A DNA stretch of 64,000 nt from Acetobacteraceae bacterium. GTDB lineage: Bacteria > Pseudomonadota > Alphaproteobacteria > Acetobacterales > Acetobacteraceae. A model generated the notes under the pieces. That model searched no databases. It was not told where the DNA came from and was given only the letters and a program-made list of their open reading frames with translations. The translations under genes and the position numbers were made by a program. This document shows, piece by piece, positions 1-52,834 of this stretch (position 1 is the first letter of the stretch; each line of letters starts with the position of its first letter). The DNA lies in NCBI GenBank assembly GCA_965199235.1, contig CBDAQU010000002.1, forward strand, positions 2,880,232 through 2,944,231, in the 5' to 3' direction.

Positions 1-658
1 CCTCGTCCCTGGTCAGCGTGGTCGTCTTGAACGTCACCTCGCCGGTTGCCTTGTCGGCAACCCCCATGCGGGTCTCGAACGGCACGATCTCGTCGTCGAA
101 CCGGCCGGCCGCCTGCGCCGCAGCGGTGCGCCTCTGCGATTCCAGCGCGTAGGCGTCCTGGGTCTCGCGGGTGACCTGGTAGCGCTGTGCGACCACCTCT
201 GCCGTGTCGATCATCGGCATGTAGATTTCCGGCTTGTTCGCCTGCAGCCAGTCATCAAAACCGTGCCAGCGGTTCATGTGCTCGTTCTGCACCAGGCTGA
301 TGCTGTCCAGCCCGCCGCCGATGGCCATCGGCAGCCCGTCGAACATCACGCGCTGCGAGGCGATCGAGATCGCCTGCAGCCCGCTGCTGCACTGGCGGTC
401 GACCGTGGTGCCGGCTGTCGTCACGGGCAGGCCGGCACGGATGGCGGCCTGGCGGGCGATGTTGCCGCCGGTCGCACCCTGCTGCAGCGCGCAGCCCAGG
501 ATCACGTCCTCGATCTCGCCGCCCTCCACCTTCGCGCGCGCCATCGCCTGGGCCACCGCGTGGCCGGCCAGAGTGGCACCGTGGGTGTCGTTGAAGGCGC
601 CGCGATAGGCGCGGCCGATCGGCGTGCGTGCGGTGGAAACGATGACGGCTTCGCGCAT
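1..658 (-). CDS. Acetyl-CoA C-acyltransferase (thiolase), 5' part; runs off the window edge
   Basis: Manual translation from ATG at 658: [28 protein letters not shown]..., later GGNIARQAA and [14 protein letters not shown] (catalytic Cys motif). Not in the ORF track. Confidence 0.92.
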
Positions 659-797
659 GTGTGCTCCCTGTGGCGGGCTTGCATGCCGCGCCTGCGTTGG
701 GCCGTCTGCGCCTGCAGACAGGCCGTGAACCCTTGGACCAGCCCCGAGCCCCGCATCCGCTGGACCGGCCGGGAGCGGTTTGCCATAGTCAGCAGTG

Positions 798-813
798 TCG
801 GGTGTTCACCCTA
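798..813. promoter_or_regulatory. Palindromic operator, copy 1 (TCGGGTGTTCACCCTA; consensus TAGGGTG-NN-CACCCTA)
   Basis: Lies in the divergent thiolase/tetR gap. One mismatch to the same 16-mer found at 4425 and 13578. Confidence 0.7.
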
Positions 814-856
814 GCCATGTCAACGCGACCCGGGGGGCCGACCGCGAGGCAACACG

Positions 857-1480
857 ATGGCAGATCAACGTCCAAGCACGCGCGACCGCATCCTCGACGC
901 CTGCCGCATCCTGTTCAACGAGCGCGGGCCTGCCGAGGTGACGACCGCGGAGATCGCGACCGCAGTCGGTATCAGCGAAGGCAACCTGCACTATCACTTC
1001 CGCCGCAAGGAACTGATCCTGGTCGCCCTGTTCGACCAGTTCGAGGCCGCCAACGACCGCGCGGGCCAGCCCAACCCGGCAATGAGCCGGCACCAGGAGC
1101 CGCACCGCCAATACCTCGCCGGCTGGTTCAACATGATGTGGGAGTGGCGGCTGTTCTACGCCGCCGGCGTCTACCGCATGGCGCCGGTGCTGCAGCCGCG
1201 GCTGATGCGCATGACCGACAACGTGCAGGCCCAGGTCGGCCGTGTGCTGCACAGGCTGGTGCAGGACGGCGTCCTGCACGCGGAGACGGCCGAGATCGAG
1301 CAACTTGTCGTCAACGCCTGGATCGTGGCGAGCTACTGGATCGACTACCTGCGGCTGCGGCAGGGAGTGGAAACCATCACCCGCGACCATTTGCGCTGGG
1401 GCTACGCGCAGGTCGAGTCGCTGTTCACCCCCTACGCCCTGGCGGCCGGACGGGCTGCCAAGATCCGCAAAGTCGGGTAG
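857..1480 (+). CDS. TetR/AcrR family transcriptional regulator
   Basis: N-terminal HTH RDRILDAC...VTTAEIATAVGISEGNLHYHFRRKE; 207 aa; divergent from the thiolase. Confidence 0.93.
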   Translation: MADQRPSTRDRILDACRILFNERGPAEVTTAEIATAVGISEGNLHYHFRRKELILVALFDQFEAANDRAGQPNPAMSRHQEPHRQYLAGWFNMMWEWRLFYAAGVYRMAPVLQPRLMRMTDNVQAQVGRVLHRLVQDGVLHAETAEIEQLVVNAWIVASYWIDYLRLRQGVETITRDHLRWGYAQVESLFTPYALAAGRAAKIRKVG

Positions 1481-1586
1481 GCAGCGCTTCAGAGCATGAT
1501 GATTCCAAGTCGGCACGGGCCCTCACCCGGTGCCGGCTTATGTCCAGGTTACCATGCCATAACCGCGTCTTTGCTGAAGGTTGACG

Positions 1587-2633
1587 ATGACCACACTGAT
1601 CGAGGTGCGCGACCAGCATCGCTTCGACGAGGCCGCTCTGCGGGACTATTTGGCCGCGCACCTGCCGGAAGCGGCGGCGCCGATCGCCATACGGCAATTC
1701 CAGGGCGGCCAGTCGAACCCCACCTTCCTGCTGACGGACGCCGCAGGCCGGCGCTACGTGCTGCGCAAGAAGCCGCCGGGCGCGATCCTGCCATCCGCCC
1801 ACGCGGTCGAGCGCGAGTACGCCGCCATGCGGGCGCTGGGCCCTACATCGACGCCGGTGCCGAACGCGCGGCTGCTCTGCGAGGACAGCGCAATCATCGG
1901 CACGCCGTTCTACGTGATGGACTACATCGAAGGCCGCGTGCTGACCGATCTGCGCCTGACCGACATTCCCCAAGGCGAGCGGGCCGGCTACTACCGCGCC
2001 ATGGCGGACGGGCTGGCCGCCCTGCACAGCGTGGACTGGCGGGCGGCGGGCCTGGCAAGCTTCGGGCGGCCGGAGGCCTACATCGCGCGCCAGATCGGCC
2101 GCTGGACCAAGCAGTACCTGGCGTCCGACCCTGAAGCGAACGCCGACATGGACGCGCTGATCGAATGGCTGCCCACGCACCTGCCGCCGGACGAACCGGC
2201 GGTGATCGCGCATGGCGACTATCGCCTCGGCAACCTGATGTTCGCGCCGGACGGTCCGCGCCTGCTGGCGATACTGGATTGGGAACTGGCGACGATCGGC
2301 CATCCGATGGCCGACCTGGCCTACCTCGCCTCGTTCTACCGCCTGCCGCAGGACGGCAACCCGTTCAAGGGCCTGGGCGGCGCGGACCTGGCCGCACTCG
2401 GGCTGCCCACTGAGCTTGAGCTGGTGACGCGGTACTGCGAGGGCGTCGGCAGAGCGTTCCCCGCCGACGAATGGCCGTTCTACCTGGCGTTCTCGCTGTT
2501 CCGCTCGGCCTCGATCGGCTGGGGCGTCTACGACCGGTCGCGCCGGGGCAACGCGGCGGACCAGCGCGCACACCTCTACGGCCAGATGTTCCGCACCTGT
2601 GCGGCGGCGAGCTGGCGCATCGCGCGCGGCTGA
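1587..2633 (+). CDS. Phosphotransferase family protein (APH/ACAD10-11 N-terminal-like)
   Basis: QFQGGQSNPTF, LRKKPPG, HAVEREY, HGDYRLGN and ILDWEL motifs. Confidence 0.9.
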   Translation: MTTLIEVRDQHRFDEAALRDYLAAHLPEAAAPIAIRQFQGGQSNPTFLLTDAAGRRYVLRKKPPGAILPSAHAVEREYAAMRALGPTSTPVPNARLLCEDSAIIGTPFYVMDYIEGRVLTDLRLTDIPQGERAGYYRAMADGLAALHSVDWRAAGLASFGRPEAYIARQIGRWTKQYLASDPEANADMDALIEWLPTHLPPDEPAVIAHGDYRLGNLMFAPDGPRLLAILDWELATIGHPMADLAYLASFYRLPQDGNPFKGLGGADLAALGLPTELELVTRYCEGVGRAFPADEWPFYLAFSLFRSASIGWGVYDRSRRGNAADQRAHLYGQMFRTCAAASWRIARG

Positions 2634-2639
2634 TCGCGC

Positions 2640-2664
2640 CGAACCCGAGCCTTGCGCCGCCGTT
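2640..2664 (+). promoter_or_regulatory. Putative EcfG/sigmaT (general stress) promoter CGAAC-N16-CGTT
   Basis: One mismatch to GGAAC-N16/17-CGTT; ends 25 nt before the ATG at 2689. Confidence 0.5.
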
Positions 2665-2688
2665 GATCCCCCACACAAGGAGGGCGAC

Positions 2689-2892
2689 ATGCCAGACAAG
2701 AACGAACACACCGGCCGCTTCGGCGGCCCGGGCAGCAGCCACCAGGACAAGGACCACCCTGGCAAGAATCACCAGGAGCACGGCCACAAGGCCGGCGGCG
2801 GCAAGCCAGGCTCACAGCCCGACCACCTCAAGGACACGGGCGGCGACAACGCCGGAGGCGGACACCACTACAGAGAGCACGGCCGAACTTAA
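2689..2892 (+). CDS. Small His/Gly-rich hydrophilic protein (67 aa), probably disordered
   Basis: Strong RBS AAGGAGGG before the ATG; MPDKNEHTGRFGGPGSSHQDKDH...; 10 His and 16 Gly; codon usage like neighbouring genes. Confidence 0.75.
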   Translation: MPDKNEHTGRFGGPGSSHQDKDHPGKNHQEHGHKAGGGKPGSQPDHLKDTGGDNAGGGHHYREHGRT

Positions 2893-2931
2893 CAAACCGG
2901 GTCTGGGCCCGACTGGCCCCGTCACGCGAGA

Positions 2932-3006
2932 GCGTGCATCGCACGACACGTGAGCGCGTGCATCGCACGACACGTGAGCGGGTGGCCAGGGGCAGCGCCC
3001 CTGGCC
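2932..3006. repeat. 24-bp tandem duplication followed by a GC hairpin between convergent genes
   Basis: GCGTGCATCGCACGACACGTGAGC x2 (2932-2979), then GGCCAGGGG-cagcg-CCCCTGGCC (2984-3006). Confidence 0.85.
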
Positions 3007-3014
3007 TGCCTATC

Positions 3015-4358
3015 CTATCGCCGTCCAGCCCGCCGCAGCGCGTCCGGCGTGAAATCATCCGGCGTCAGCGACGTTGTGGTGTAGGTCGGCGCCACCGCGT
3101 CCTGGCTGTGCAGGCCCTGAACCAGGTAGCGGCGGGCGAGCAGATCCATGAACTCGTACCCGTCTGCGCCGCAGAGCGGGACATCCGGCGCCTCCGCTAT
3201 GAAGGCGAGCGCCGTCCGCCATAGCTGGCCGCGCGTATCGTAACGGTCTGCGATCGCGATCTGCCAGCTATCCTCGTCGATGTAGAACGTCCGGCGTGCA
3301 TAGATGTTGCGGAAACCCGGCTTCAACGTTGCTTCCACAACCCACACACGGTGCAGCTCGAAGCGTATCAGGTCGGGATTGACCGCGATCGGCTTTACGA
3401 TGTCGCTGTACTTAACGCCCGGCTGCTGGATCCTGTAGGTGTTGTAGGGGATGTAGATTTCCTTCTTCCCCTTCAACGTCCAGTTGTAGCGGTCTACGGC
3501 GCCGTTAAACATGTCGTAGTCGTCGACGGTCTCCAGGCCATCGGTGTTCTGCACAGGAGTGTCGTAGTTGATCTCCGGCGCGCGGCGCACGCGGCGCTCG
3601 CCCGGGTTGTAGGTCCAGGCCTCGCGCGGCTGCGAAAACGGGTCCTGGTAGCTGCGCACGAGGGTGATCTGGCCGGCGATGCGCGGCGGCTCCAGCACCT
3701 CCTGCCAGAACAGGCTGTCCCACTTGGCAGGGTTGGCCAGGCCCGGCGTGTTGTAGGCGAGCAGGATCTGCTCGTGCCACCGGGTCAGGGAGTAGTCGCC
3801 GCTCGGCGTGGTGATCGCGTTGTCGGTGGTGCGCTGCACCTGGCTGCCGCGCCAGCGCAGGATGTGGTTCCAGATCGCCTCGTTGCCGTTCTTTGGTATT
3901 GGGAACGGGATAGACAGCTTGGCGCCTGCGACGCCCAGGCCGTTTTCGGTCAGGTGCGCGCGGCTCGCATTGGCGATGGCGTTGTCGTAGATGAATTGCG
4001 GCGCCGCTGCCGTCCGGTGTGTCGGATACACGTCGACGTGGTAGCCTGGCAGCGTGCGCACCATCGCGACCGTGCCGTCCGCCATGTGGCTGGCGTAGCG
4101 GTCGACGTTCTGCGCCGTGATGACGAATAGCGGCCGCTCGGGGGCGAACGGATCTGCCCGGTAATGGCCGGACACGAAGCCGGATGCGGGGGTGGTCAGG
4201 CCGCCGGTCCAGGCAGGAATGGTGCCGTCCGCGTTGCCTGACTTCACCGCGCCCAGCGGCGTCAGGCTGTGGCCGAGATCCGCCGCGGTCTGCGCGCCCG
4301 CAGGGGCCGCCAGCACCCAGCCGGCCAGTATGGTCGCTGCAAGCAGCATCTTCTTCAT
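3015..4358 (-). CDS. DUF1329 domain periplasmic protein (LolA-like fold family)
   Basis: Signal peptide MKKMLLAATILAG...; LTPLGAVKSGNADGTIPAWTGG, YNPGERRVRRAP, RRTFYIDEDSWQI motifs. Confidence 0.9.
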   Translation of the reverse strand: MKKMLLAATILAGWVLAAPAGAQTAADLGHSLTPLGAVKSGNADGTIPAWTGGLTTPASGFVSGHYRADPFAPERPLFVITAQNVDRYASHMADGTVAMVRTLPGYHVDVYPTHRTAAAPQFIYDNAIANASRAHLTENGLGVAGAKLSIPFPIPKNGNEAIWNHILRWRGSQVQRTTDNAITTPSGDYSLTRWHEQILLAYNTPGLANPAKWDSLFWQEVLEPPRIAGQITLVRSYQDPFSQPREAWTYNPGERRVRRAPEINYDTPVQNTDGLETVDDYDMFNGAVDRYNWTLKGKKEIYIPYNTYRIQQPGVKYSDIVKPIAVNPDLIRFELHRVWVVEATLKPGFRNIYARRTFYIDEDSWQIAIADRYDTRGQLWRTALAFIAEAPDVPLCGADGYEFMDLLARRYLVQGLHSQDAVAPTYTTTSLTPDDFTPDALRRAGRR

Positions 4359-4424
4359 GATTGTCGTCCCATCCCTCGTATTTCGGCGATTTTCGCCTTC
4401 CGGCGTATCTAATCTACACCGCTC

Positions 4425-4440
4425 TAGGGTGTCCACCCTT
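4425..4440. promoter_or_regulatory. Palindromic operator, copy 2 (TAGGGTGTCCACCCTT)
   Basis: About 67 bp upstream of the DUF1329 start; one mismatch to the consensus. Confidence 0.7.
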
Positions 4441-4526
4441 GCTCAGGATACCGCTGGGGACGAACGCGGGGAGGCGGCGGGAAACTCTGTCCGTGCCGCG
4501 CGAGCCACTCGGCTGGATAAACGTGG

Positions 4527-4561
4527 CCGCCATCCGGCCGCACGGCGCGGCCGGATGGCGG
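4527..4561 (-). terminator. 15-bp stem hairpin, likely terminator after the UrcA-family gene
   Basis: CCGCCATCCGGCCGC-acggc-GCGGCCGGATGGCGG, just past the stop at 4575. Confidence 0.6.
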
Positions 4562-4574
4562 TTTGGGCCGGCCA

Positions 4575-4916
4575 TCAGTTCGGTGCGACGGACGCCACGG
4601 AGTAGCCCCTGTTTGCAGCGGCAACCACCACACGCAGGTTGTGCAACGCATCCTGCAGCGCGGCAGCCTGGCAGGCCGCGTCGTCGGAGCTGAATGCTAC
4701 CCCGCCGCTGCTTTCGCCGCACACGGCGTGGCTGGCCGCCACCAGACGGCGGCGCAGCGCGTCCACGCCTTCCTTCTTGGCGAGGTTCAGGTCGGCATAG
4801 GTGACGACCATCGTGCGCACGTCGGTGTCCGCAGCACGGGTGCTGTTCAGCAGCGCGGTGCCGGCCAGCAGGGTGACAGCCGCCAGGCTGACGCGAGAGG
4901 CTTTGGTGATGTTCAT
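4575..4916 (-). CDS. UrcA family small secreted protein
   Basis: RBS GGAG; signal peptide; VTYADLNL...GVDALRRRLVAASHAVCG...AAC (two Cys), typical of the UrcA family. Confidence 0.8.
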   Translation of the reverse strand: MNITKASRVSLAAVTLLAGTALLNSTRAADTDVRTMVVTYADLNLAKKEGVDALRRRLVAASHAVCGESSGGVAFSSDDAACQAAALQDALHNLRVVVAAANRGYSVASVAPN

Positions 4917-5262
4917 GATTGTTGCTCCAGGTTGGTCGTGACAGCGGGGTCTGCCCTCTGGTGCCCTGAGGTCCTTGACGGAGCCCCTGGCGACGGCCGA
5001 ACCGGTAGTCCGCAATCCGAGACAGGCCTGCATCAATCCAGGCTAAATCTTACTAAGGTCAATAAATCCAGCTTGAACAGAGCTTTACACGTTTCAAGGC
5101 GGTAGCTCTTAGGCCTTGTCCGAGCTAAGCTTGGCTGCTTGTCGGGTCACTCGCCGGCGCGCTCCTGTCCAGCATCGGCCTGCAACCGCCGCAGCATTGA
5201 TGTCGGGCCGGTTCTTGCGGTAAGCCGCCCGCGCGCGGCTATCACGCCGCGGGAGCGTTCCG

Positions 5263-7467
5263 ATGCCGGTCGCGCCTCAACGTGTCCGTTTCGGCCGATG
5301 GCTGCTGGATGCGCCTCGCCGGACGCTGTATGCCGATGGCGTGGCGGTCGCGTTGAACGGCCGCGGCTTCGACCTGCTGGCATTTCTGGTGGCGCGCCAT
5401 GGCCAGCCGGTCAGCCGCGACGAGATCTTCGCGCATGTCTGGCCTGGTATCACGGTCGGTGAAAACAACCTCAGCGTCCAGATATCAAGCCTGCGCAAGA
5501 TCTTGGGCGAGGGGAGCGCGGCAGGCCCAGGGTTGATCGTGACCGTGCCGGGGCGGGGCTACAGTTTTACTGGAGAGGTAAGCGCGGAGACGTCTCGTGA
5601 GTCGCCGGCGCCGATGCTGCTGCGCGAGATCGACTTGCCATCTCCTGATGCAGGGCCGTCCCAACCGGCACTGCCTGCCGCCTCCAACGCGGCAACCGGC
5701 CGCTGGGGCACATCGTCCCCGGCCGTGAGCGCTGCTTTGGGCCTAGTGCTGGCGGTTTTGCTGCTCGGCAGCGCCGCTGCCCTGTTCTGGCGCCCGGCCC
5801 CGCCAGTGCCGCGCCTCTCGATCGCCGTGCTGCCTTTGAGGAATCTTAGTTCAGACAGGGAAAAAGCCTATCTCGCAGACGCGTTGACTGATGATCTGAC
5901 GTGTGATCTCGCTCACATCCCTGGCAGCATCGTCACTGCGCGCACGAGTGCGGAGGCCTATCAACACGCAGCCATGTCGGTCGAAGCCATCGGCCACGCC
6001 TTGCGCGTTCGCTACCTTGTCGACGGAAGCCTCACCTTCGAACAGGGCCGCTATTACGTCAGCATTGGTCTGATCGACGCGGCAAACGGCCACCATCTCT
6101 GGACGAGCCGCTTGCCGCCAATCCAGGGACGGCTGTTCGAGGTTCGCAATGCGCTCGTCCGCCAGCTATCTGTGGCACTCGGGTTCGAGATGGAACAGAT
6201 CGAAAGCGCCCGGTCCATCAGCGATCGTCCGGACGATCCTGATGCGACCGACCTGTTCCTTCGAGCACGCGCAATTCTCGATTGGGACACGTCGCTTCCT
6301 GGATTGCATCGGGCTCAGGCGATGCTCGAAAACGCTATCGAGCAGCAGCCGAGGTTTGGCGATGCACTGGCCCAGCTTGGGTCGATGCTTTTGACTAAAG
6401 TTCACGACATGGACGATCCCGACGCCGACAAGGACTACGCCGAGGCCTTGGAGATGATCAAACGGGCGCTGGAGGTATCGCCGAGGAACGCCTTGGCACT
6501 CGCAGCGCACGGGCGCGCACTGACGTTCACTGGTCGATGGACGGAAGCATCCTTCAGCGCCAACGCAGCCCTGAAAATCGAGCCCTCCTGTGTCGAGGCC
6601 GAAGCGGTGCTCGCGAAGTCTGCTCAAGCGCAGGGTTACCTTGACGACGCAGTGGAGCACATCGAAGCCATCTTTCGCCTCATGCCCAATAGCCCGCTCA
6701 ACAAAACGCGCTACGTAACGCTCGGCCTGATCTATCTGGTGAAGGGCGAAACTGAGGCTGCAATGAAGCAACTTCACGAAGCGATCGCGGGTGAGGAAGA
6801 CAGTGTGCCCACTGAGGGCTTGGGAAGAGTGGAAGTCACAAAGCTTCTGCTGGTTGCCGGGACCGGCATGCTCGGCCGGTCAGCAGATGCTCGGAAACTG
6901 TATGAGGATTACCGCACCAACTGGCCTAATCGGACAGAATGGCGCTTTGCCGCCCTGTTCGACAAATCCTACACACGCATGCCCGGGTTCCAACGCATGA
7001 TGACCGCACTCGAAAACGCCGGGATGCCGGTCACGGCGGACGAGCATGCGCCACCGTCCTCGCCTTCTCCTGCATGCCCCGGCACGGCGTTCGACGAGAC
7101 CCCGGCCAAGCTCGCGCATGGCCGAACGCTCGACACCGACTCGGTTTCGGCACTTCTGAAGCTGCAACCGCCGCCACTGCTCATAGATCTCGGAGACGGT
7201 ATTGCCCAGCCCCCAGGAGCGGTGCTGTATCGGCAGGGCGAAGTCGTTAAGCCGGCAGAAGTATTTGCGCTGGATACCGCACGGCAACATAATCTCGATG
7301 CGCAAACAGTAATAATCGTAATGGGCAGCGGAGCCTACGGCTGTACTTCTTTCTTGGCAGCAACAAGTCTTCTTGCGCACGGCTATAAAAATACAGCATG
7401 GTATCGCGGTGGCGAAGAGGCATGGGCTGCGGCCGGGAAATCCTCAACCGACGGGAGACCTGAATGA
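5263..7467 (+). CDS. Membrane-anchored transcriptional regulator: OmpR/CadC-type wHTH + TM + TolB-N-like + TPR + rhodanese-like domain
   Basis: RFGRWLLD...FDLLAFLV...VGENNLSVQISSLRKILG...TVPGRGYSF; hydrophobic segment ALGLVLAVLLLGSAAALFW; SIAVLPLRNLS; TPR helices; C-terminal WYRGGEEAWAAAG. Confidence 0.85.
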   Translation: MPVAPQRVRFGRWLLDAPRRTLYADGVAVALNGRGFDLLAFLVARHGQPVSRDEIFAHVWPGITVGENNLSVQISSLRKILGEGSAAGPGLIVTVPGRGYSFTGEVSAETSRESPAPMLLREIDLPSPDAGPSQPALPAASNAATGRWGTSSPAVSAALGLVLAVLLLGSAAALFWRPAPPVPRLSIAVLPLRNLSSDREKAYLADALTDDLTCDLAHIPGSIVTARTSAEAYQHAAMSVEAIGHALRVRYLVDGSLTFEQGRYYVSIGLIDAANGHHLWTSRLPPIQGRLFEVRNALVRQLSVALGFEMEQIESARSISDRPDDPDATDLFLRARAILDWDTSLPGLHRAQAMLENAIEQQPRFGDALAQLGSMLLTKVHDMDDPDADKDYAEALEMIKRALEVSPRNALALAAHGRALTFTGRWTEASFSANAALKIEPSCVEAEAVLAKSAQAQGYLDDAVEHIEAIFRLMPNSPLNKTRYVTLGLIYLVKGETEAAMKQLHEAIAGEEDSVPTEGLGRVEVTKLLLVAGTGMLGRSADARKLYEDYRTNWPNRTEWRFAALFDKSYTRMPGFQRMMTALENAGMPVTADEHAPPSSPSPACPGTAFDETPAKLAHGRTLDTDSVSALLKLQPPPLLIDLGDGIAQPPGAVLYRQGEVVKPAEVFALDTARQHNLDAQTVIIVMGSGAYGCTSFLAATSLLAHGYKNTAWYRGGEEAWAAAGKSSTDGRPE

Positions 7468-7883
7468 ACGACCAGTCAAGCATCGCAGGTGCCGCATCGA
7501 ACGCGGACACAGACCCGACAGACATTACGATCGAGTCCCTGACCGCTCTGCTAGACGACGTGATGGCTGCGAAGGAAAAGCACTACATCGTCATCGCAGT
7601 CTACGCATTGCCGAAAGACTGCGTCATCGGCAGTCGCAGTGGCGGGCATGATGTTGGTGGCACACCTGATGGGCTGACCGGCGTCCCGCCTGGCCGAAGG
7701 AATGCGATCTATAGATTTCCGATCGTGGACAAGGTGGATTTCGCGCGCGTACAGCTCGCATCAGCCGTGATCGAGCGATTCAAGAAAGCCAATGAGGTAC
7801 AGGCGGTGGTAGCCACGTCGAACCACCTTTACGCTCAGACGGCCTTCGGAGTCGAAAAACACCACCATCCCGACAGAGCGTGA
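7464..7883 (+). CDS. Hypothetical protein (139 aa)
   Basis: ATGA overlap with the upstream stop (translational coupling); no family recognised. Confidence 0.55.
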   Translation: MNDQSSIAGAASNADTDPTDITIESLTALLDDVMAAKEKHYIVIAVYALPKDCVIGSRSGGHDVGGTPDGLTGVPPGRRNAIYRFPIVDKVDFARVQLASAVIERFKKANEVQAVVATSNHLYAQTAFGVEKHHHPDRA

Positions 7884-7901
7884 ACTGGCTCCGTCCACCT
7901 G

Positions 7902-8010
7902 ATACCGACCGGCCGTGGGACCGACACACCCAAATGAACAAAGGTTTTCGGTCTTTTTTGCAAAAAGGACTGCTTGCCTTTCGTGAGTCAGACTCAAACC
8001 CGGTCGGTAT
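7902..8010. promoter_or_regulatory. Pair of TetR-type operator-like half-sites (ATACCGACCGG ... CCGGTCGGTAT)
   Basis: Perfect 11-bp inverted repeat at 7902-7912 and 8000-8010. On the minus strand TTGTCA directly precedes the second site. Confidence 0.4.
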
Positions 8011-8042
8011 GACAACAGAGTAAATACTTTTGGGGGGTGTCT

Positions 8043-10394
8043 CTACCCCCCATGCTCCGGCTCGAGCGCCGCTGCAATATCCCCCGGGTGTTTCTGCGGC
8101 ACGATCAAATCCATCACCCCGATGATCGCCGGCAGCACCACGATCGCGCCCGCCATGTTCATGAAGAACATGAACGTCAGCAGCATGCCCATGTCCGCCT
8201 GGAACTGCAGCGGCGAGAACGCCCAGGTGGCGACGCCGATCGACAGCGAGAGGCCGGTGAAGATCACCGCGGACCCGGTCTCCCGCAGGGTCTGGATGTA
8301 GGCCGCGTTCAGCGTGTAGCCGCGACGCATGTAGTAGCTGAGGCGCGAGAACTTGTAGATGCCGTAATCCACGCCGATGCCCACGCCGAGTGCGGTCACC
8401 GGCAGGGTGGAGAGTTTCAGGCCTATGCCGAGCACGCTCATCGCGGCGTTGGCCAGGATGGACACGGCGGCCAGCGGCAGCACGATGCAGAGCGCTGCCC
8501 GCACGGAGCGGAACACGCCCAGGCAGATCACGATGATCATGCCGTAAACCAGCCCCAGCATCGGCATCTGCGCACGCTCGACGACCGCATTGGTGGCGCC
8601 GATCACGCCCGCAGTCCCGGCCGCCAGCTCCAGCCGAACCTTGGAGGCCGAGGGCGTCGCGGAAAACCGCTCGATCGTCTTGATCACGCGGTCGATCGTG
8701 CCCGCCTTGTGGTCGGTCAGGAAGATGATCAGCGGCATCGCCGAGCAGTCGTTGTTGGCCAGGCCCTGGCTCGGCTCGAAGGCCGAGCTGTCGCGGCCGA
8801 GAACGCGGCTGTCATGCGGCAGGTAGTCGAATTTCGGGTTGCCCTCGTTGAACTGCACGTTCACCAGGCGCATCAGGTGTCCCATGAACAGCGTGCTGCG
8901 CACGCCGGGCACACCCTGCAGACGATGGTCCAGGTCGTCGATCCGGCGCACGCTGGCATAGTCCAGGCACGAGTTCGCAGGACCCTCGGCTAACACCTCC
9001 AGCACGTCCACACCGACCGAGTAGTTGTTCTGGAAGAACGCCGCGTCGCGGTTGTTGCGGCTGTCCGGCCGCAACTCCGGCACGCCCACGTGAAGGTCGC
9101 CCACCACAGGCTGCCCGAGCAGCAGCGCGCCGCCGGCCACCGCCACCGTCAGCGCGCAGATGATCACCGCAGAGCGCGGCGCAATCAGGCTGGCGAGAAG
9201 TCGCCAGAACCCCTCGAAACGCGCGGCCCCGCGCTGCGCCGCCTCCACCCGCGCCATGGAGACCGCGGCAAAGCTCGCGATCACCGGAAGCACCATCAGG
9301 TTCGTCACCGCCAGCACGGCGATGCCGATCGCAGCCGTCAGGGCCAGCTCGCGTATCGCCGGCACGGGGATCGTCGTGACGGTGACGAAGGTGAGGACGG
9401 CCAGTGCCAGCGCCACCGCGCCGGGCTCCAGCAGGTTGTGGAAACTGCCGCGCGCTGCCTCCAGAGACGACTTGCCCTCGCCGACCAGGCGCACGTTGGA
9501 CAGCGCGATCTGCACGCCGTGGCTGACGCCGATCGACAGGATCAGGAAGGGGATCAGCACCGAGATCGGGTCGATCCCGATGCCGAAGATCGTGATGATG
9601 CCGAGCTGCCACATCACGGCGATCAGCGAGCAGGCGAGCGCGGCTGCGGTCAGATAGAGCGACCGCGAAACGATGTAGAGCAGCACGGCGGCCACCGCGA
9701 GCGCGATGCCGAAGAACAGCACGATCACCTGCGCGCCGTGCTCGATGTCGCCGACCGCCTGCGCGAAGCCGAGGATGTGCACCTGCGTGTCGGGCGTGTC
9801 GTATTTCGCCCGGATGATGCTGTCGAGCGAGTCGGCGAACCGGCCGTAATCGAGGTGCTTTCCGGTCTGCGGATCGACGTCGTTCAGCTTGGCGCTGACC
9901 ACCGCGCTGCGGAAGTTGTTGGCGACCAGCCTGCCGAGAATGCCGGATTTGTAGATGTTCGCTTGCAGCGTCTCGAAACCATGCGCGTCCGGCTTGAACG
10001 TCTCCGGAATGACCGGGCCGCCGTTGAACCCGCCCTCCACGACTTCGGCAAAGCGCGTGTCGGGCGTGAACAGGCTGCTGACGTGGTTGCGGTCTACGCC
10101 ATGCAGGAAGAACACGTCGTCGGTCAGGCGCCGCAGCGCGTCGAGATACTTGGCCGAGAAGATGTCGCCGTTCTTCGCCTCCAGAGAGATCAGCAGCACG
10201 TTGCCGCCGCCGAACTGCGCCTCCACCCGCTTGTAGGTGTCGATATAGGCGTTGTGCGACGGCAGAAGCTTGTCGAAGGCGGCGTCCGGGCGCACGCGCA
10301 CGGTGAAGAAGCCCAGTCCGACGGTCACGATCGCAAACAGCGCCAGCACCAGGCGGCGATGGCCGAACAGGGCGCGGTCGAGGAACCCGATCAC
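8043..10394 (-). CDS. RND superfamily / MMPL-type transporter
   Basis: 783 aa; two TM bundles with periplasmic loops; GIGVDYGIY and ILSIGVSHGVQ motifs; GTG start overlaps the YCF48 stop. Confidence 0.92.
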   Translation of the reverse strand: MIGFLDRALFGHRRLVLALFAIVTVGLGFFTVRVRPDAAFDKLLPSHNAYIDTYKRVEAQFGGGNVLLISLEAKNGDIFSAKYLDALRRLTDDVFFLHGVDRNHVSSLFTPDTRFAEVVEGGFNGGPVIPETFKPDAHGFETLQANIYKSGILGRLVANNFRSAVVSAKLNDVDPQTGKHLDYGRFADSLDSIIRAKYDTPDTQVHILGFAQAVGDIEHGAQVIVLFFGIALAVAAVLLYIVSRSLYLTAAALACSLIAVMWQLGIITIFGIGIDPISVLIPFLILSIGVSHGVQIALSNVRLVGEGKSSLEAARGSFHNLLEPGAVALALAVLTFVTVTTIPVPAIRELALTAAIGIAVLAVTNLMVLPVIASFAAVSMARVEAAQRGAARFEGFWRLLASLIAPRSAVIICALTVAVAGGALLLGQPVVGDLHVGVPELRPDSRNNRDAAFFQNNYSVGVDVLEVLAEGPANSCLDYASVRRIDDLDHRLQGVPGVRSTLFMGHLMRLVNVQFNEGNPKFDYLPHDSRVLGRDSSAFEPSQGLANNDCSAMPLIIFLTDHKAGTIDRVIKTIERFSATPSASKVRLELAAGTAGVIGATNAVVERAQMPMLGLVYGMIIVICLGVFRSVRAALCIVLPLAAVSILANAAMSVLGIGLKLSTLPVTALGVGIGVDYGIYKFSRLSYYMRRGYTLNAAYIQTLRETGSAVIFTGLSLSIGVATWAFSPLQFQADMGMLLTFMFFMNMAGAIVVLPAIIGVMDLIVPQKHPGDIAAALEPEHGG

Positions 10395-11371
10395 TGTGTC
10401 ATCTCCCTGGCCGCCTGCGTCGCCGCGGGGTCCATCAGGTGCACGCCGTCATCGCCGACCACCACCAGCTTGCCGTCGGCGGCTTCGGCGACGCCGGAGA
10501 GGGTTACACCGGTCGGCGGCGGCAGCGTGCGGGCGCGGTCGGTATGCGGATCGAACAGCATCACTAGCCCGTTGCCGCCGACCAGCGCGAAGGAGCCGTT
10601 GGCCAGCACCGTGCCGCCGAAGATCGAGCGTTGCTCGCCGGTGTCGATGCGGCGCCAGGCGGGCGAGGCGGCGCTGGAGACGAACAGGCTGCCGCGCAGC
10701 CCGAAACTGTAGACCTCGCCATCCTGCGCGCGCAGACAGCCGAACTGCGAACCGTCATAGCCGACCGGGATCGCCGTCCACGCCGCGTCGTGGCGCAGAA
10801 ACGCGTGCCCGGCCTCGCCCACCACCACCAGGTCCGGTCCACGCGCCAGCACGCAATTGAGGTGGTAGTCTTCGTCCAGGTTCGGCAGCTTGACCGGCGT
10901 CCACGCGGCGCCGGCATTGGACGTCTCCAGCATCAACGCGTACGAGCCGGTCGCGACCAGATGGCCGGGGCCCAGGCTGGCTACGGAGAACAGCACCTGG
11001 TCGGCGCCGGGGGTCGTCATCTGCGTCGTCCAGTGCGCACCCGCATCGGCGGTGTGCAGTATCGTCGAGTCCTGCCCAACCACCCAGCCATCCGACGGGC
11101 TGACGAAGACGGCAGCCGTCAGAAGTTCGTCGGTGCCGCTCGTGACGGCCGACCACGTCACACCCTGGTCGTCGGACAGCAGGATCGCACCGCGGTCGCC
11201 CACCGCAACCAGCCGCTTGCCGGCCCGGCTGACAGAGAGGAGCACGCCGTGCACGGCGCGCCAGTTCGGCGTGTCAGTCGATACCTGCCCAGCTTGCGCG
11301 ACGGTGTTTGCTGCTGCCAAGACGAGGACCATTACCATGGCCCGTAAACCAAGCTTGGGTATCAAAGACAC
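10391..11371 (-). CDS. YCF48-related / BNR-repeat beta-propeller protein
   Basis: LVAVGDRGAILLSDDQGVTW, TADAGAHW and TSNAGAAW repeats. Start is GTG 11371 (RBS GAGAGG) or ATG 11338. Confidence 0.88.
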   Translation of the reverse strand: MSLIPKLGLRAMVMVLVLAAANTVAQAGQVSTDTPNWRAVHGVLLSVSRAGKRLVAVGDRGAILLSDDQGVTWSAVTSGTDELLTAAVFVSPSDGWVVGQDSTILHTADAGAHWTTQMTTPGADQVLFSVASLGPGHLVATGSYALMLETSNAGAAWTPVKLPNLDEDYHLNCVLARGPDLVVVGEAGHAFLRHDAAWTAIPVGYDGSQFGCLRAQDGEVYSFGLRGSLFVSSAASPAWRRIDTGEQRSIFGGTVLANGSFALVGGNGLVMLFDPHTDRARTLPPPTGVTLSGVAEAADGKLVVVGDDGVHLMDPAATQAAREMTQ

Positions 11372-11418
11372 TGACCTCTCGTTCCTTCCGGGCGCTTCGA
11401 CCCTGCCCGCAAAACCGA

Positions 11419-11461
11419 AGCCACCACGCCCGGCTGCGCGTGGCAGCAAAACGTGGTGGCT
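11419..11461 (-). terminator. Stem-loop between the DUF1302 and YCF48 genes
   Basis: AGCCACCACG (11419-11428) ... CGTGGTGGCT (11452-11461). Confidence 0.45.
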
Positions 11462-11535
11462 CGACGATCTCGGCACTAAACGCCGGAACGGGTGCGCTTG
11501 CCCCTTACACGTTTCCGTCAGCGTTGTCGCCCTGG

Positions 11536-13491
11536 TCAGAACTCGTAGGACACCACGGCGGAGACGAAGTCGCGGTCGATCAGCCCGTAGAACTTCCCGC
11601 CGTCGAAAACCGGGAAATGGTTGGTGTATTGCAGGCCAAGGCTCCACGCCTGCAGGTAGTTGAACGTGACGCCGATGCTGGCTGCCGCCGTGTTCTGCAC
11701 GAACACGTTCACGCCGACGGGGCTGGTCCCGACGAAATCGTGCTGCAGGGAGATCGTCGGCTTCATGTCGATGCCGTAAGGCAGCACGTTGGGCATGTCG
11801 ATGATCGTGGCGATAGTATAGGCGGCGGAGAACTGGCTCGCCAGGCCCTTCGTCGAGAGGGGCGTATTGCCGTTCACCGTGGCCGTCTCGTTGAAGGTGG
11901 AGTTGACCTCCGTCGTGTAGGCCGCATCGAACACGCCGCGGTTGCGCGGGAAGTTCGCCACGAAGTCGCCGCCGATCTCGCCCACGATGGCGATCTGGTT
12001 GATGTATAGGCTCGGGATGGCGTTGAACAGCTTCGTCGCCGTCGTCTGGGCCTGGATCACCGGGTAGCGCTTCCAGCCGTCGATGATCTGGTTGTAACCG
12101 GTCGGTATGCCAGCGAGCTGGATCGTCTGGTCGGTGATGGCGTCGTGATAGGCGGTGGCGAGGGCCGGCGACAGGCCGAGCGACTGCTTGATGGCCGGCA
12201 GTGCCTGCGCCAGCGCCAGGTCGGACGCACTGAGCTGGATCGGCTGGTTGATGCGGCTCGACAGCTCGCCCTGGATGGCCAGGCCTTCCGGACCGGTGAA
12301 GTTCCAGCTCACGCCCAGGAGGTGGATGTCCTTCGGATAGTCGGCGAAGTAGGACGCCGTCGACTCGTAGCTTTTCTGGACGTAGCCCTTGATGCCCTCC
12401 AGAGCGATCTGGAACGGCCGCGGCAGTTCTGCGTAGGTCGGGCCCAGATAGGGCGCCAGGCCGGAGATGTTGAAGCTGCCTGTCCGGTCGGAGCTGAACG
12501 GCGTGCGGCTGTGGTAATTCTCGAAGTAGAACCCGAATTCCGCGTCGCCCAGGCTGGAGAAGCTCTTGCGCAGGGCAAAGCCGAACTCGTCAAGGCTGGT
12601 CGGGTGGCGGTCCAGGCTGCGCGGCAGCGACGCGCCGAACAGGTCGCCCACGCCGGCGTTGATGCCGTAGACGCTCTGCCGGTTGTCGGCAAAGTCGTTG
12701 CGCAGATTACCGTAGGTGCCGCCGTCCACGATCGTGTCGTTGTTGCCAAAGAACGACCCGTTGGGCTCCAATATGGTGCGCGTCCAGGCAAACTGCCAGA
12801 ACGCCTCCAGCGAGTAGCCGTCGGCCAGGTCCGTCTTTATGTCCACCACCGGGATCGGCAGGAACCCCTGGCGGAGTTCGGAGCCAGGGGTGCGCAGCGC
12901 CGTGGTGTCGAGCGGGTTGATGGAGTTTATGCCGAACTGGATGAACGTGCTCTCGCCCCAGTTAAGCGCCTGTGCGCCGACGCGCACGTCCACGGGATGG
13001 CCGAAGACCGACGGACGGGCGAAGGCGTAGGCGTCGAGCAGCCGGAGGTTCGCACCGATGTCGACCTCCGCCGAACGGCTCAGCGGCAGGAAATCGGTGC
13101 GCTCGCTGTCGGTTACAGGGTCGTAGAACCCGGTCGCACGGATGAAGAACCCGTAATCGTCCTTCTTGGCCTGCAGCTCCGTCGTGACGCGCTGCACCGC
13201 GGCCACCGGCGACCCGTCCCGGTAGTTCAGCGTGCCGTTGTCGTAGTTGGCCAGCACGAAACGCCCGCCCGGATTGGCGACACCCACGAAGTTGTAGTCG
13301 ATCGGCGACGTGCGAAGGTCCACGCTGGACGACAGCGTCGTATCGAGGTTCACCTGCCAGCCATCGATGGTTGTGTCGAAGGCGCGGGCATTGTCCGTGA
13401 CCGCCATGGCGGCACAGGCGGCTCCAGCCATCAACACCGCACGGCGCAGCCTGGTCATCGATGGTGCCCCGCACGAAACAGTATAGGCCAT
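11536..13491 (-). CDS. DUF1302 family outer-membrane protein
   Basis: Signal peptide; YDNGTLNY, GAQALNWGESTFIQFGINSINPLD, LEAFWQFAW motifs; C-terminal DRDFVSAVVSYEF (terminal Phe of beta-barrels). Confidence 0.9.
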   Translation of the reverse strand: MAYTVSCGAPSMTRLRRAVLMAGAACAAMAVTDNARAFDTTIDGWQVNLDTTLSSSVDLRTSPIDYNFVGVANPGGRFVLANYDNGTLNYRDGSPVAAVQRVTTELQAKKDDYGFFIRATGFYDPVTDSERTDFLPLSRSAEVDIGANLRLLDAYAFARPSVFGHPVDVRVGAQALNWGESTFIQFGINSINPLDTTALRTPGSELRQGFLPIPVVDIKTDLADGYSLEAFWQFAWTRTILEPNGSFFGNNDTIVDGGTYGNLRNDFADNRQSVYGINAGVGDLFGASLPRSLDRHPTSLDEFGFALRKSFSSLGDAEFGFYFENYHSRTPFSSDRTGSFNISGLAPYLGPTYAELPRPFQIALEGIKGYVQKSYESTASYFADYPKDIHLLGVSWNFTGPEGLAIQGELSSRINQPIQLSASDLALAQALPAIKQSLGLSPALATAYHDAITDQTIQLAGIPTGYNQIIDGWKRYPVIQAQTTATKLFNAIPSLYINQIAIVGEIGGDFVANFPRNRGVFDAAYTTEVNSTFNETATVNGNTPLSTKGLASQFSAAYTIATIIDMPNVLPYGIDMKPTISLQHDFVGTSPVGVNVFVQNTAAASIGVTFNYLQAWSLGLQYTNHFPVFDGGKFYGLIDRDFVSAVVSYEF

Positions 13492-13577
13492 GTACCGCCC
13501 CCCTTGAATGTCGCCGGCTCTGCGTCCGGTTGGCCTGTCCCGGCGCCTCGAGACGCGGCCGATCCAAGCAGAAACGT

Positions 13578-13593
13578 TAGGGTGGGCACACTA
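13578..13593. promoter_or_regulatory. Palindromic operator, copy 3 (TAGGGTGGGCACACTA)
   Basis: 87 bp upstream of the DUF1302 start; one mismatch to the consensus. Confidence 0.7.
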
Positions 13594-13677
13594 ATAGCGT
13601 CAAGGCGAGGTTCGGCCGTTGATGCAAGCCTGCAACACCATGCAGTGCAGCAACCCCATCGTTTGCTGCGGGATGGA

Positions 13678-13702
13678 GGAAACCGGGTGGGCGGCGAACG
13701 TT
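13678..13702 (+). promoter_or_regulatory. Putative EcfG-type promoter GGAAA-N16-CGTT
   Basis: Ends 31 nt before the GTG at 13733. Confidence 0.45.
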
Positions 13703-13732
13703 CACGCCACGCCCGATACGAAGGAGGTTGCC

Positions 13733-13903
13733 GTGAGCGAGACACAGAGCCCAGAAATACCGAAGGAGGAGCATCGCGACGACGCTCTGGACGACACCTT
13801 CCCGGCCAGCGACCCGATCTCCATCGGCGGCAGCACCGGCCCGGAGGATGCGCAGCCGCCGGACACGCTGGAGGACAACCCGAGCGCGGGTCATCCCTCC
13901 TGA
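13733..13903 (+). CDS. Small acidic protein with DDTFPASDP motif (56 aa)
   Basis: RBS AAGGAGG; MSETQSPEIPKEEHRDDALDDTFPASDPISIGG...; this motif is typical of small alphaproteobacterial stress proteins. Confidence 0.75.
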   Translation: MSETQSPEIPKEEHRDDALDDTFPASDPISIGGSTGPEDAQPPDTLEDNPSAGHPS

Positions 13904-13933
13904 GGGCAGCCTACAGCGTGTCGGCCGGGTCAC

Positions 13934-14054
13934 AGACCCGGCCAGCAGCGGAGCGTCAGACCGGCCAGCAGCGAAGCGTCAGACCGGCCAGCAGCGAAGC
14001 GTCAGAGGGGCGAGCAGCGAAGCGTCAGAGGGGCGAGCAGCGGCAACTTAGACC
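13934..14054. repeat. About five tandem copies of a 23-bp unit (AGACCGGCCAGCAGCGAAGCGTC)
   Basis: Copies start at 13934, 13958, 13981, 14004 and 14027. The phase continues to AGACC at 14050, inside the glnA stop/last codons. No spacers. Confidence 0.9.
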
Positions 14055-15490
14055 GAGTAGTACATCTCGAACTCGACCGGGTGGGGCGTATGCTCGAAGC
14101 GGAACACCTCGCTCCACTTCAGCTCGATGTAGCTTTCTATCTGATCCTTGGAAAACACGTCGCCGGCGAGCAGGAACTCGTGGTCGGCGGCCAGCGCACC
14201 GAGCGCCTCGCGCAGGGATCCGCACACGGTCGGGATGCCCTTCAGCTCCTCCGGCGGCAGGTCGTAGAGGTCCTTGTCCATCGGCTCGCCCGGGTGGATC
14301 TTGTTCCTGATGCCGTCCAGGCCGGCCATCAGCATGGCGGCGAAGGCCAGATAGGGGTTTGCCGTGGGGTCGGGGAACCGCACTTCCACCCGCTTGGCCT
14401 TCGGGCTGGTCGCATACGGGATGCGGCACGAGGCCGAGCGGTTGCGCGCCGAATACGCCAGCAGCACCGGCGCCTCGAAACCCGGGATCAGCCGCTTGTA
14501 GCTGTTGGTGCTCGGGTTGGTGAACGCGTTCAGCGCCTTGGCGTGCTTGATGATGCCGCCGATGTAGTAGAGGCAGGTCTCCGACAAGTCGGCATAGGCG
14601 TTGCCCGCGAAGACCGGGCGGCCGTCCTTCCAGATCGACTGGTGCACATGCATGCCGCTGCCGTTGTCGCCGTAGATCGGCTTGGGCATGAAGGTCGCGG
14701 TCTTGCCGTAGCTGTGCGCCACGTTGTGCACGCAATACTTGTAGATCTGCATCTGGTCGGCGCTCTTGACCAGCGGGCCGAACTTGGTGCCGAGCTCGTG
14801 CTGGCTCTGCGCCACTTCGTGGTGGTGCTTCTCGATCGGCAGGCCCATCTCGCCCATGGTGGTCAGCATCTCGGCCCGCAGGTCGCTCTCGCTGTCGACC
14901 GGCGGCACCGGGAAGTAGCCGCCTTTCACCACCGGGCGGTGCCCCATGTTGCCTTCCGGATAATCCTTCAGCGAGGCCTGCGGACCTTCGATGCTGTCGA
15001 TCTGGTAGGTGCCGTAATTGCCGCCGGTGCCGAATTTCACGCTGTCGAAAATGAAGAATTCCGCTTCCGCGCCGAACAGGGCCGCGTCGCCCACGCCCGT
15101 GGACGCGACGTAGGCCTCGGCCTTCTTCGCCGTGCTGCGCGGGTCGCGCGCGTAAGCCTGTCCGGTGCTGGGCTCGATGATATCGCAGAACAGGATCATG
15201 CTCGGCTTGGACGCGAACGGGTCCATCACCGCGCTCGCGGGGTCCGGCATCAGGATCATGTCGCTCTCGTTGATCGCCTTCCAGCCGGCGATCGAGGAGC
15301 CGTCGAACATGACGCCGTCGCGGAACGCGTCCTCGTCGATGGTGGAGACGTACTGCGCGGTATGCTGCCACTTGCCGCGAGGATCGGTGAAGCGGAGATC
15401 GACGAACTCCACGGAGTTCTCGCGCATCATCTCGAGGCATCTGGACACCGCGTTCGGTTCCGGCGGCGTCTGCTGGATCTTCTTGGCCAT
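14048..15490 (-). CDS. glnA: Glutamine synthetase type I
   Basis: [60 protein letters not shown] (adenylylated Tyr). Confidence 0.98.
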
Positions 15491-20658: not shown

Positions 20659-20735
20659 GGCGGACGTAGCTCAGTTGGTAGAGCGCCGGTTTGTGGTACC
20701 GGTTGTCGCGGGTTCGATCCCCGTCGTTCGCCCCA
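20659..20735 (+). tRNA. tRNA-His (GUG) with encoded G-1 and CCA
   Basis: Acceptor stem GCGGACG/CGTTCGC; anticodon loop TTGTGGT; T-loop GGTTCGATCC; G-1 opposite C73. Confidence 0.97.
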
Positions 20736-52759: not shown

Positions 52760-52834
52760 TGGCTGGGGCGGGAGGATTCGAACCTCCGCATGGCGGAATC
52801 AAAATCCGCTGCCTTACCGCTTGGCGACGCCCCA
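52760..52834 (-). tRNA. tRNA-Gln (UUG)
   Basis: TGGGGCGTCGCCAAGCGGTAAGGCAGCGGATTTTGATTCCGCCATGCGGAGGTTCGAATCCTCCCGCCCCAGCCA. Confidence 0.97.

Follow-up and report, generated by a model that had tools for sequence, protein, structure and literature searches.

Does a short palindrome join a TetR-type regulator, a thiolase gene and the genes of a poorly understood envelope transporter in one regulon? This question is raised by a 64-kb window (the whole stretch of DNA that was analysed; contig CBDAQU010000002.1, positions 2,880,232 to 2,944,231) from an Acetobacteraceae bacterium. The first-pass annotation of this window had noted three one-mismatch copies of TAGGGTG-NN-CACCCTA, placed in the divergent gap between a thiolase gene and tetR, upstream of a DUF1329 gene and upstream of a DUF1302 gene. 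We searched the window for the palindrome (TAGGGTGNNCACCCTA) with at most one mismatch and used 100 dinucleotide-preserving shuffles as a control. Exactly three matches were found, at 798, 4425 and 13578, with one mismatch apiece, and both the placement and the gene assignments were correct. All of the 100 shuffles were free of matches, and no additional site appeared in the 64 kb when the threshold was loosened to three mismatches. The three sites are referred to as O1 to O3:

798–813, no strand assigned: O1, TCGGGTGTTCACCCTA, in the thiolase/tetR divergent gap, 44 bp 5' of the tetR ATG and 140 bp from the thiolase ATG
4425–4440, no strand assigned: O2, TAGGGTGTCCACCCTT, 67 bp 5' of the DUF1329 start codon
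13578–13593, no strand assigned: O3, TAGGGTGGGCACACTA, 87 bp 5' of the DUF1302 start codon

All three are intergenic and lie 44–140 bp 5' of start codons. With a weight matrix made from all collected sites, O1–O3 scored 20.8–23.3 bits. The runner-up in the window, the fourth-best match at 40705, reached 9.1 bits and was dropped because it falls in the 3' end of an open reading frame (ORF). The genes concerned are the following:

Window start to 658, minus strand: thiolase (acetyl-CoA C-acyltransferase), 5' part only, Pfam Thiolase_N, ATG at 658
857–1480, plus strand: tetR, with the helix-turn-helix (HTH) domain PF00440 and the C-terminal domain PF13972 (Pfam)
1581–2633, plus strand: APH-family phosphotransferase (Pfam APH)
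3015–4358, minus strand: DUF1329, a LolA-like periplasmic protein (Pfam, 467 bits), with a signal-peptide-like N-terminus from the ATG at 4358
8043–10394, minus strand: RND/MMPL (HAE3-like) inner-membrane transporter (Pfam MMPL/Patched), its start overlapping the BNR stop by 4 nt
10391 to ~11338 (start inferred), minus strand: BNR/YCF48-like β-propeller protein (Pfam PSII_BNR), with the signal-peptide-like MVMVLVLAAANTVAQA
11536–13491, minus strand: DUF1302, a predicted outer-membrane β-barrel (Pfam, 422 bits), first gene of the DUF1302-BNR-RND operon

Based on its distribution, we propose that the PF13972-type TetR encoded at 857–1480 has TAGGGTG-N2-CACCCTA as its operator and that this palindrome defines a regulon of four transcription units. 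We put the probability of this reading at roughly 75%.

The first line of evidence is conservation. A scan of GTDB species genomes with the DUF1329 protein yielded 80 loci (individual loci carry L numbers below). Nine of them are close relatives with a DUF1329 identity of 69–82%, all from metagenome-assembled Acetobacteraceae or Alphaproteobacteria. In each of the nine the palindrome stands directly 5' of DUF1329, and in those extending far enough it is also found in the tetR/thiolase gap and 5' of DUF1302. TetR orthologues of 56–83% identity were fetched by exact protein (L081, L082/83, L085–L088 and L152); L152, with a TetR identity of 83%, served as a proxy for the DNA to the left of the window. 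All of these loci share a core module in which genes for a thiolase, an SDR and a GMC oxidoreductase, in this order, diverge from tetR and the APH gene, except that the GMC oxidoreductase gene is missing from L081, L085 and L152. DUF1329 is mostly there and DUF1302-BNR-RND in some, and the palindrome occupies the expected promoters in all.

In 17 related loci the corresponding promoters carry the same sites, down to a TetR identity of 56%. Sites of the O1 type were found in the thiolase/tetR gap of 13 further loci (at most two mismatches, TetR identity 56–83%), of the O2 type 5' of DUF1329 in 14 further loci and of the O3 type 5' of DUF1302 in five (L002–L004, L081, L085). In O2, 13 out of 16 bases are invariant among 12 aligned loci; this site is also present in L085, L086 and L152. 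A footprint was clearly visible in intergenic alignments: pairwise identity inside the operator averages 0.89 for O1, 0.97 for O2 and 0.96 for O3, compared to 0.34–0.56 in the 60-bp flanks (0.44–0.51 around O1 and 0.34–0.56 around O2). In ~0.39 Mb of DNA from this clade no site with at most one mismatch was observed outside the three promoter classes. Each class retains its own departure from the perfect palindrome, namely CACCCGA (thiolase/tetR), TAGTGTG (DUF1302) and AAGGGTG (DUF1329). These deviations may be kept because the end positions in question double as promoter elements.

The second line of evidence is the company that the motif keeps. The 71 distant DUF1302/DUF1329 loci (DUF1329 identity up to 52%), which mostly carry the canonical DUF1302-DUF1329-BNR-RND operon, contain neither such a TetR nor a site with at most one mismatch; a single two-mismatch match was found in their 1.3 Mb. 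Linkage to tetR is not required for the site to be kept: L008 (DUF1329) and L087 (tetR) are separate contigs of a single assembly, and several metagenome DUF1302 operons with the site have no tetR within several kb.

The TetR protein itself scores 46.2 bits with PF00440 (cut-off 24) and 90.6 bits with PF13972 (cut-off 25). No NCBIfam equivalog model reached its cut-off, with the AcrR and MtrR models far below theirs. The closest structures, similar over the full length, are 3rh2 and 3nnr, for neither of which a function is described. With 21 clusters at 50% identity (E up to 1e-30), the subfamily is a small one. Except for a single H-to-W change, the HTH segment EGNLHYHF is invariant in the protein alignment, which includes homologues of as little as 29% identity, and the recognition segment ISEGNLHYHFRRK is kept across homologues linked to the thiolase gap and to SDR, FMO-like and DJ-1/PfpI genes. 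A literature search returned nothing relevant on PF13972, on a TetR with DUF1329 or on the motif. AlmR of Alcanivorax, considered as a TetR controlling almA, was dropped as a candidate for comparison, since an Ig-like domain is given for it (PMC11784139).

In L084, the locus of a paralogue with 60% TetR identity and no DUF1302 or DUF1329 nearby, TTGACC-N4-TAGGGTACGCACCCTA lies between tetR and an SDR gene. We scanned a metagenome collection with TTGACNNNNNTAGKGTRNNCACCCNA, which combines a -35-like box with the operator (TTGAC-N5-operator), and obtained 63 loci:

32 of 63: 5' of DUF1302, protein identity 52–79%
11 of 63: in thiolase/tetR or SDR/tetR gaps
4 of 63: beside TetR homologues of 30–42% identity (L131, L132, L139, L096)
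13 of 63: low-GC contigs (0.37–0.54) with no related genes, treated as chance background
1 of 63: L103, probably a truncated DUF1302 promoter
2 of 63: L127 and L151, put in no class

The distant TetR genes are divergent from an FMO-like flavin monooxygenase gene in L131 and L132 and from a DJ-1/PfpI gene in L096; on the short contig L139 the downstream gene is not identifiable. Since the motif is absent from the 71 loci without the TetR and recurs beside distant TetRs with other targets, it tracks the TetR subfamily. On the sequences compared, the palindrome follows the TetR and not the transporter genes. The idea that the TetR at 857 co-controls the thiolase, DUF1329 and DUF1302-YCF48-RND genes is well supported in silico; its wording in terms of import is not, as discussed below.

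These data bear directly on the possibility that the palindrome is the site of another, unlinked global or lipid regulator and that the TetR gene is only one member of that regulon. The sites at unlinked loci would fit such a regulator, and a half-operator-like element 5' of AMP-ligase and acyl-CoA dehydrogenase (ACAD) genes, described below, indicates that other conserved promoter elements exist nearby. However, the motif follows TetR homologues into four contexts (thiolase gap, SDR, FMO-like monooxygenase, DJ-1/PfpI) in which TetR identity falls to 30–42% and the HTH is still conserved. In addition, no other regulator is conserved in the neighbourhoods of the relatives examined, from which the CadC-like regulator at 5263 is absent. 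We consider this explanation unlikely.

A search for sequencing runs turned up about three, all from one sample and with no stated library type, and no RNA run. We took promoter hexamers from conservation alone:

818–823, minus strand: putative thiolase -35 box TTGACA, 4 nt from O1, conserved in 9 of 9 aligned loci
761–789, plus strand: putative tetR promoter TGGACC-N17-CATAGT, in which TGGACC and CATAG are invariant and the last base is not
13574–13603, minus strand: putative DUF1302 promoter, with TTGACG (13603–13598), an 18-nt spacer containing most of O3, and TAACGT (13579–13574)

The elements of the DUF1302 promoter are conserved in five loci and 32 metagenome contigs. A TTGAC(A/G/C) box is found exactly 4 nt from the operator at the thiolase gene, at DUF1302 and at the L084 site (TTGAC-N5 when counted from the C). 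With the box at this distance, the operator would fill the -35/-10 spacer at the thiolase gene and DUF1302 and overlap a weak -10, for which GACACT (thiolase) and TAACGT (DUF1302) are candidates. The assignment of the tetR promoter would put O1 at about +2 to +18, and this one operator would serve two overlapping divergent promoters. At DUF1329 two conserved blocks, GTTGCTTA and GTGAAATCGCCGC, come after the operator.

Several observations weigh against the proposed operator–regulator pair. In L107 no site can be recognised 5' of DUF1329, and O1 of L003 is degenerate (TGGGGTGGCCGCCCGA). Part of the conservation is shared ancestry, because many of the loci are phylogenetically related. In the metagenome scan only the matches beside distant TetRs are independent, since the pattern was designed from the DUF1302 and tetR-gap classes. 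The promoter hexamers are weak, and a strict sigma-70 consensus scan of 600–14100 gave no promoter; as the hexamers fall below the threshold of that scan, the overlap of operator and promoter is something we infer. Finally, the DUF1329 operator probably lies just 5' of the likeliest -35, an atypical spot for a repressor.

The last point would suit a TetR that binds these sites as an activator or dual regulator, at least at DUF1329. There the operator is located 6 nt 5' of the most plausible -35 and centred near -50, and unlike the other two promoters this one has no TTGAC box 4 nt away. At the thiolase gene and DUF1302, however, an operator that fills the -35/-10 spacer corresponds to the classical geometry of a repressor, and the promoter assignments are themselves putative. 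Most characterised TetR proteins are repressors. We regard activation as improbable, to about the same degree as control by another regulator. It is very improbable that the repeats are no regulator site at all and instead reflect chance, a small repeat element or a conserved element of the promoter or sigma-factor kind. Conserved -10-like hexamers (TAACGT, GACACT) do overlap the ends of the motif, and the site-specific departures from the palindrome persist among genomes. However, ~60 independent sequences retain the dyad symmetry over 14 positions, zero sites are expected by chance, no Rfam family matches at O1–O3, conservation of only 16 bp between diverging flanks argues against a mobile repeat, and a stem of 7 bp with a loop of 2 nt and no T-run argues against a terminator.

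From these comparisons we infer that the protein binds and that it represses instead of activating, where the promoters lie and what kind of ligand is sensed, and we propose the following mechanism for the TetR regulon. A TetR dimer would bind O1–O3, and in its ligand-free form it would repress four transcription units. Via O1 it would control the divergent thiolase operon (with the SDR and GMC oxidoreductase genes) and, from the same site, its own tetR-APH kinase operon, which amounts to autoregulation. DUF1329 would be controlled via O2 and DUF1302-BNR-RND via O3, located in the -35/-10 spacer and overlapping the -10. The repressor would come off the DNA on binding a hydrophobic or lipid-derived ligand, which might be an acyl-CoA or an intermediate of the hydroxy-lipid or ester type, and both the envelope transport machine and the oxidation enzymes would then be expressed.

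What kind of compound might be handled can be approached from the enzymes. A full-length orthologue of the thiolase passes the cut-off of NCBIfam PRK07108 (acetyl-CoA C-acyltransferase), and in most relatives the thiolase gene is followed by genes for an SDR and a choline-dehydrogenase-like GMC oxidoreductase. The regulated operon of L003, L005 and L140 lacks the thiolase and begins with the SDR gene; an A/T-rich hairpin-like stretch is found before this gene in L003 (13380–13560) and L005 (13240–13430). The APH gene stands behind tetR in all relatives examined, overlaps or abuts it in L085–L087 and is probably co-transcribed with it. Its product resembles ACAD10 and ACAD11 in that it aligns over the whole kinase domain of ACAD11 (residues 6–338, PDB 8v3v and 8v3u, E 4e-77; 3dxp, E 2.5e-92). 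It differs from them as a stand-alone 350-aa kinase homologue with no fused ACAD domain and a kinase function that is predicted. The kinase domain of ACAD10/ACAD11 phosphorylates 4-hydroxyacyl-CoAs (PMC12440821, PMC11342911).

Beside the cluster the relatives carry an acyl-CoA ligase gene and a pair of ACAD genes, the latter closest to the ChsE4/ChsE5 type and not to ACAD11. These ligase and ACAD genes lack the full operator and have instead a half-operator-like element, TTGAC(G/C)-T-TAGAGGCA(G/A)ATACCCTAAC. The right half of this element is similar to one half of the operator; the left half is degenerate, and its spacing is longer by one. The same TetR might bind the element weakly, or it might be the site of another factor. 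It was located 5' of the ligase gene and the ACAD pair at these positions:

L081, 2384–2537
L085, 2433–2568
L086, 658–825
L082, 15805–15909
L152, 1289–1483

As far as can be judged from the gene families, this set of enzymes suggests not plain β-oxidation of fatty acids but the catabolism of a lipid that is hydroxylated, esterified or of the oxo type. The breakdown of the β-oxidation type that had been proposed is too narrow for an SDR, a GMC oxidoreductase and an ACAD11-type kinase, and for the three loci whose operon has no thiolase. A more specific picture is tentative, and we hold it to be possible rather than probable: the TetR ligand might be the substrate of the envelope machine or a CoA-activated derivative of it, the regulon might constitute an unrecognised pathway for hydroxylated or esterified lipids via the SDR, GMC oxidoreductase, thiolase and ACAD11-type kinase, and the operator–TetR pair might have been re-used by paralogues for flavin monooxygenase and SDR modules.

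The direction of transport was the weak point of the earlier proposal. All four families of the system are encoded in the window (PF06980, PF07044, PF14870 and PF03176). The canonical gene order DUF1302-DUF1329-BNR-RND is found in L012–L080; here the order is DUF1302-BNR-RND, with DUF1329 as a monocistronic gene on its own promoter 3.6 kb off. The operator that these units share would fit co-expression of the four genes. The best NCBIfam match of the RND protein is TIGR00921 (HAE3), with 109 bits against a cut-off of 351.9. The four families are cofit, and export of a cell wall component was proposed for them (Sama_1588–1591; bioRxiv 10.1101/072470). In P. putida, PP_0765/0766 and PP_2018/2019 are needed on Tween 20 and butyl stearate, with PP_0767 as a LuxR-type regulator, and this growth requirement on fatty esters leaves the transport direction unestablished (bioRxiv 10.1101/2020.07.04.188060). 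AmeABCD of Castellaniella defragrans is described as exporting, with tolerance to monoterpenes as the result (PMC6394551). According to a survey from 2026, the system has LuxR and AraC neighbours and no solved structure (PMC13499233). No TetR operator for the DUF1302/DUF1329/BNR/RND system is described in the literature that we searched. To our knowledge, RND proteins are exporters in all characterised cases. Since RND pumps export and what has been published on this system either favours export or leaves the direction ambiguous, uptake is unsupported. Control of the import of a hydrophobic compound by the TetR was accordingly not borne out, and the literature suggests export (PMC6394551, bioRxiv 10.1101/072470).

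The arrangement is similar to that of Tn10 TetR/tetO, with a TetR HTH protein, a ~16-bp palindrome between tetR and a divergent target and predicted autoregulation. As in Tn10 tetR/tetA, a common operator is predicted to serve overlapping divergent promoters. Unlike Tn10, the regulator has a PF13972 C-terminal domain, the operator sequence is another one and the gap contains one operator instead of two. Two more operators lie 3.6 and 12.8 kb from O1, and metabolic and envelope genes take the place of a drug pump as targets.

Actinobacterial TetRs of the KstR/KstR2/Mce3R type coordinate lipid or steroid transport genes with β-oxidation-like catabolism. The likeness consists in one TetR and one palindrome for several operons that include a lipid transport machine and acyl-CoA-type enzymes, and in the ChsE4/ChsE5-like heteromeric ACAD pair beside the cluster in relatives. 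In contrast to the KstR systems, the present one belongs to Alphaproteobacteria, its transporter is of the DUF1302/DUF1329/BNR/RND kind and not Mce, and the ACAD and ligase genes are without a full operator. Similarity to KstR2 (4w97) amounts to an E of only 5e-4, via the HTH alone, and the KstR motifs differ from TAGGGTG-N2-CACCCTA.

Like AcrR, TtgR and MexZ, the TetR is predicted to repress an RND operon and to respond to a hydrophobic ligand. The pump, however, is four-part and HAE3-like instead of tripartite HAE1, and catabolic enzymes belong to the same regulon. Instead of adjoining a tripartite pump, as in the AcrR/TtgR case, tetR is divergent from the thiolase gene and 12 kb from the pump promoter, and the Pfam gene map contains no gene for a membrane-fusion protein. 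The nearest counterparts of the transporter are AmeABCD, PP_0765/0766 with PP_2018/2019, and Sama_1588–1591, in which the same four families are co-regulated or cofit and which share a tie to the catabolism of hydrophobic substrates. Differences are the separate position of DUF1329 and the regulators, which elsewhere are of the LuxR or AraC type (PP_0767; PMC13499233).

The DUF1302/DUF1329/BNR/RND set is common among Gram-negative bacteria, cofit in several species and needed for growth on fatty esters or monoterpenes, and its substrate is undefined and its direction unestablished (bioRxiv 10.1101/072470, bioRxiv 10.1101/2020.07.04.188060, PMC6394551, PMC13499233). The proposed regulon links this poorly understood envelope transporter to lipid-oxidation genes in uncultured Acetobacteraceae. 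A ligand-sensing TetR with a sharply defined operator offers a cheap biochemical route to the substrate class of the transporter, and the co-regulated enzymes narrow the candidate substrates to lipids of the hydroxy, oxo or ester type. The TetR operator and its regulon are of an ordinary kind, conventional but useful. Its practical value is limited in that work must be heterologous, because every genome found with the regulon is metagenome-assembled.

The remaining annotated genes in this part of the window are the following:

2689–2892, plus strand: small Gly/His-rich ORF
4575–4917, minus strand: small secreted ORF without a family match
5263–7467, plus strand: CadC/OmpR-type regulator with TPR
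7464–7883, plus strand: ORF of 139 aa with no function assigned
14048–15490, minus strand: glnA

The segment 4441–8042, which separates O2/DUF1329 from the RND gene, contains the secreted ORF, the CadC/OmpR-type regulator and the 139-aa ORF. L081 and L085 have the operator and DUF1329 immediately after the RND gene, and in L002–L006 the corresponding place holds a DUF1329 paralogue (~64% identity) that has the operator gap in common. These different contents at the same place indicate that the segment is variable or was acquired by insertion.

Within the DUF1302-BNR-RND operon, a terminator-like hairpin with a T-run is located at 11420–11447 (minus strand), inside the ~197-bp gap between the DUF1302 stop (11536) and the BNR start (~11338). 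The gap is of similar size in relatives (~170–180 bp), and the orthologues of the BNR/YCF48-like protein have 314 aa. The hairpin may act as an attenuator within the operon and determine how much outer-membrane protein is made relative to the proteins encoded downstream.

Two tandem repeats were observed in intergenic DNA. The one at 13933–14042 (23-bp unit, 4.7 copies, 94% matches) lies between a small acidic ORF (13734–13903) and the glnA stop, and the one at 2923–2984 (24-bp unit, 2.6 copies) between the Gly/His-rich ORF and the 3' end of DUF1329. In L086 (13158–16910) the cluster abuts two genes of the squalene/phytoene-synthase family, a glycosyltransferase gene and an NAD-dependent epimerase/3-β-HSD gene, an arrangement which we take to resemble hopanoid biosynthesis genes. 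The only Rfam matches in the window are two tRNA genes, at 20660–20732 (plus strand) and 52763–52834 (minus strand).

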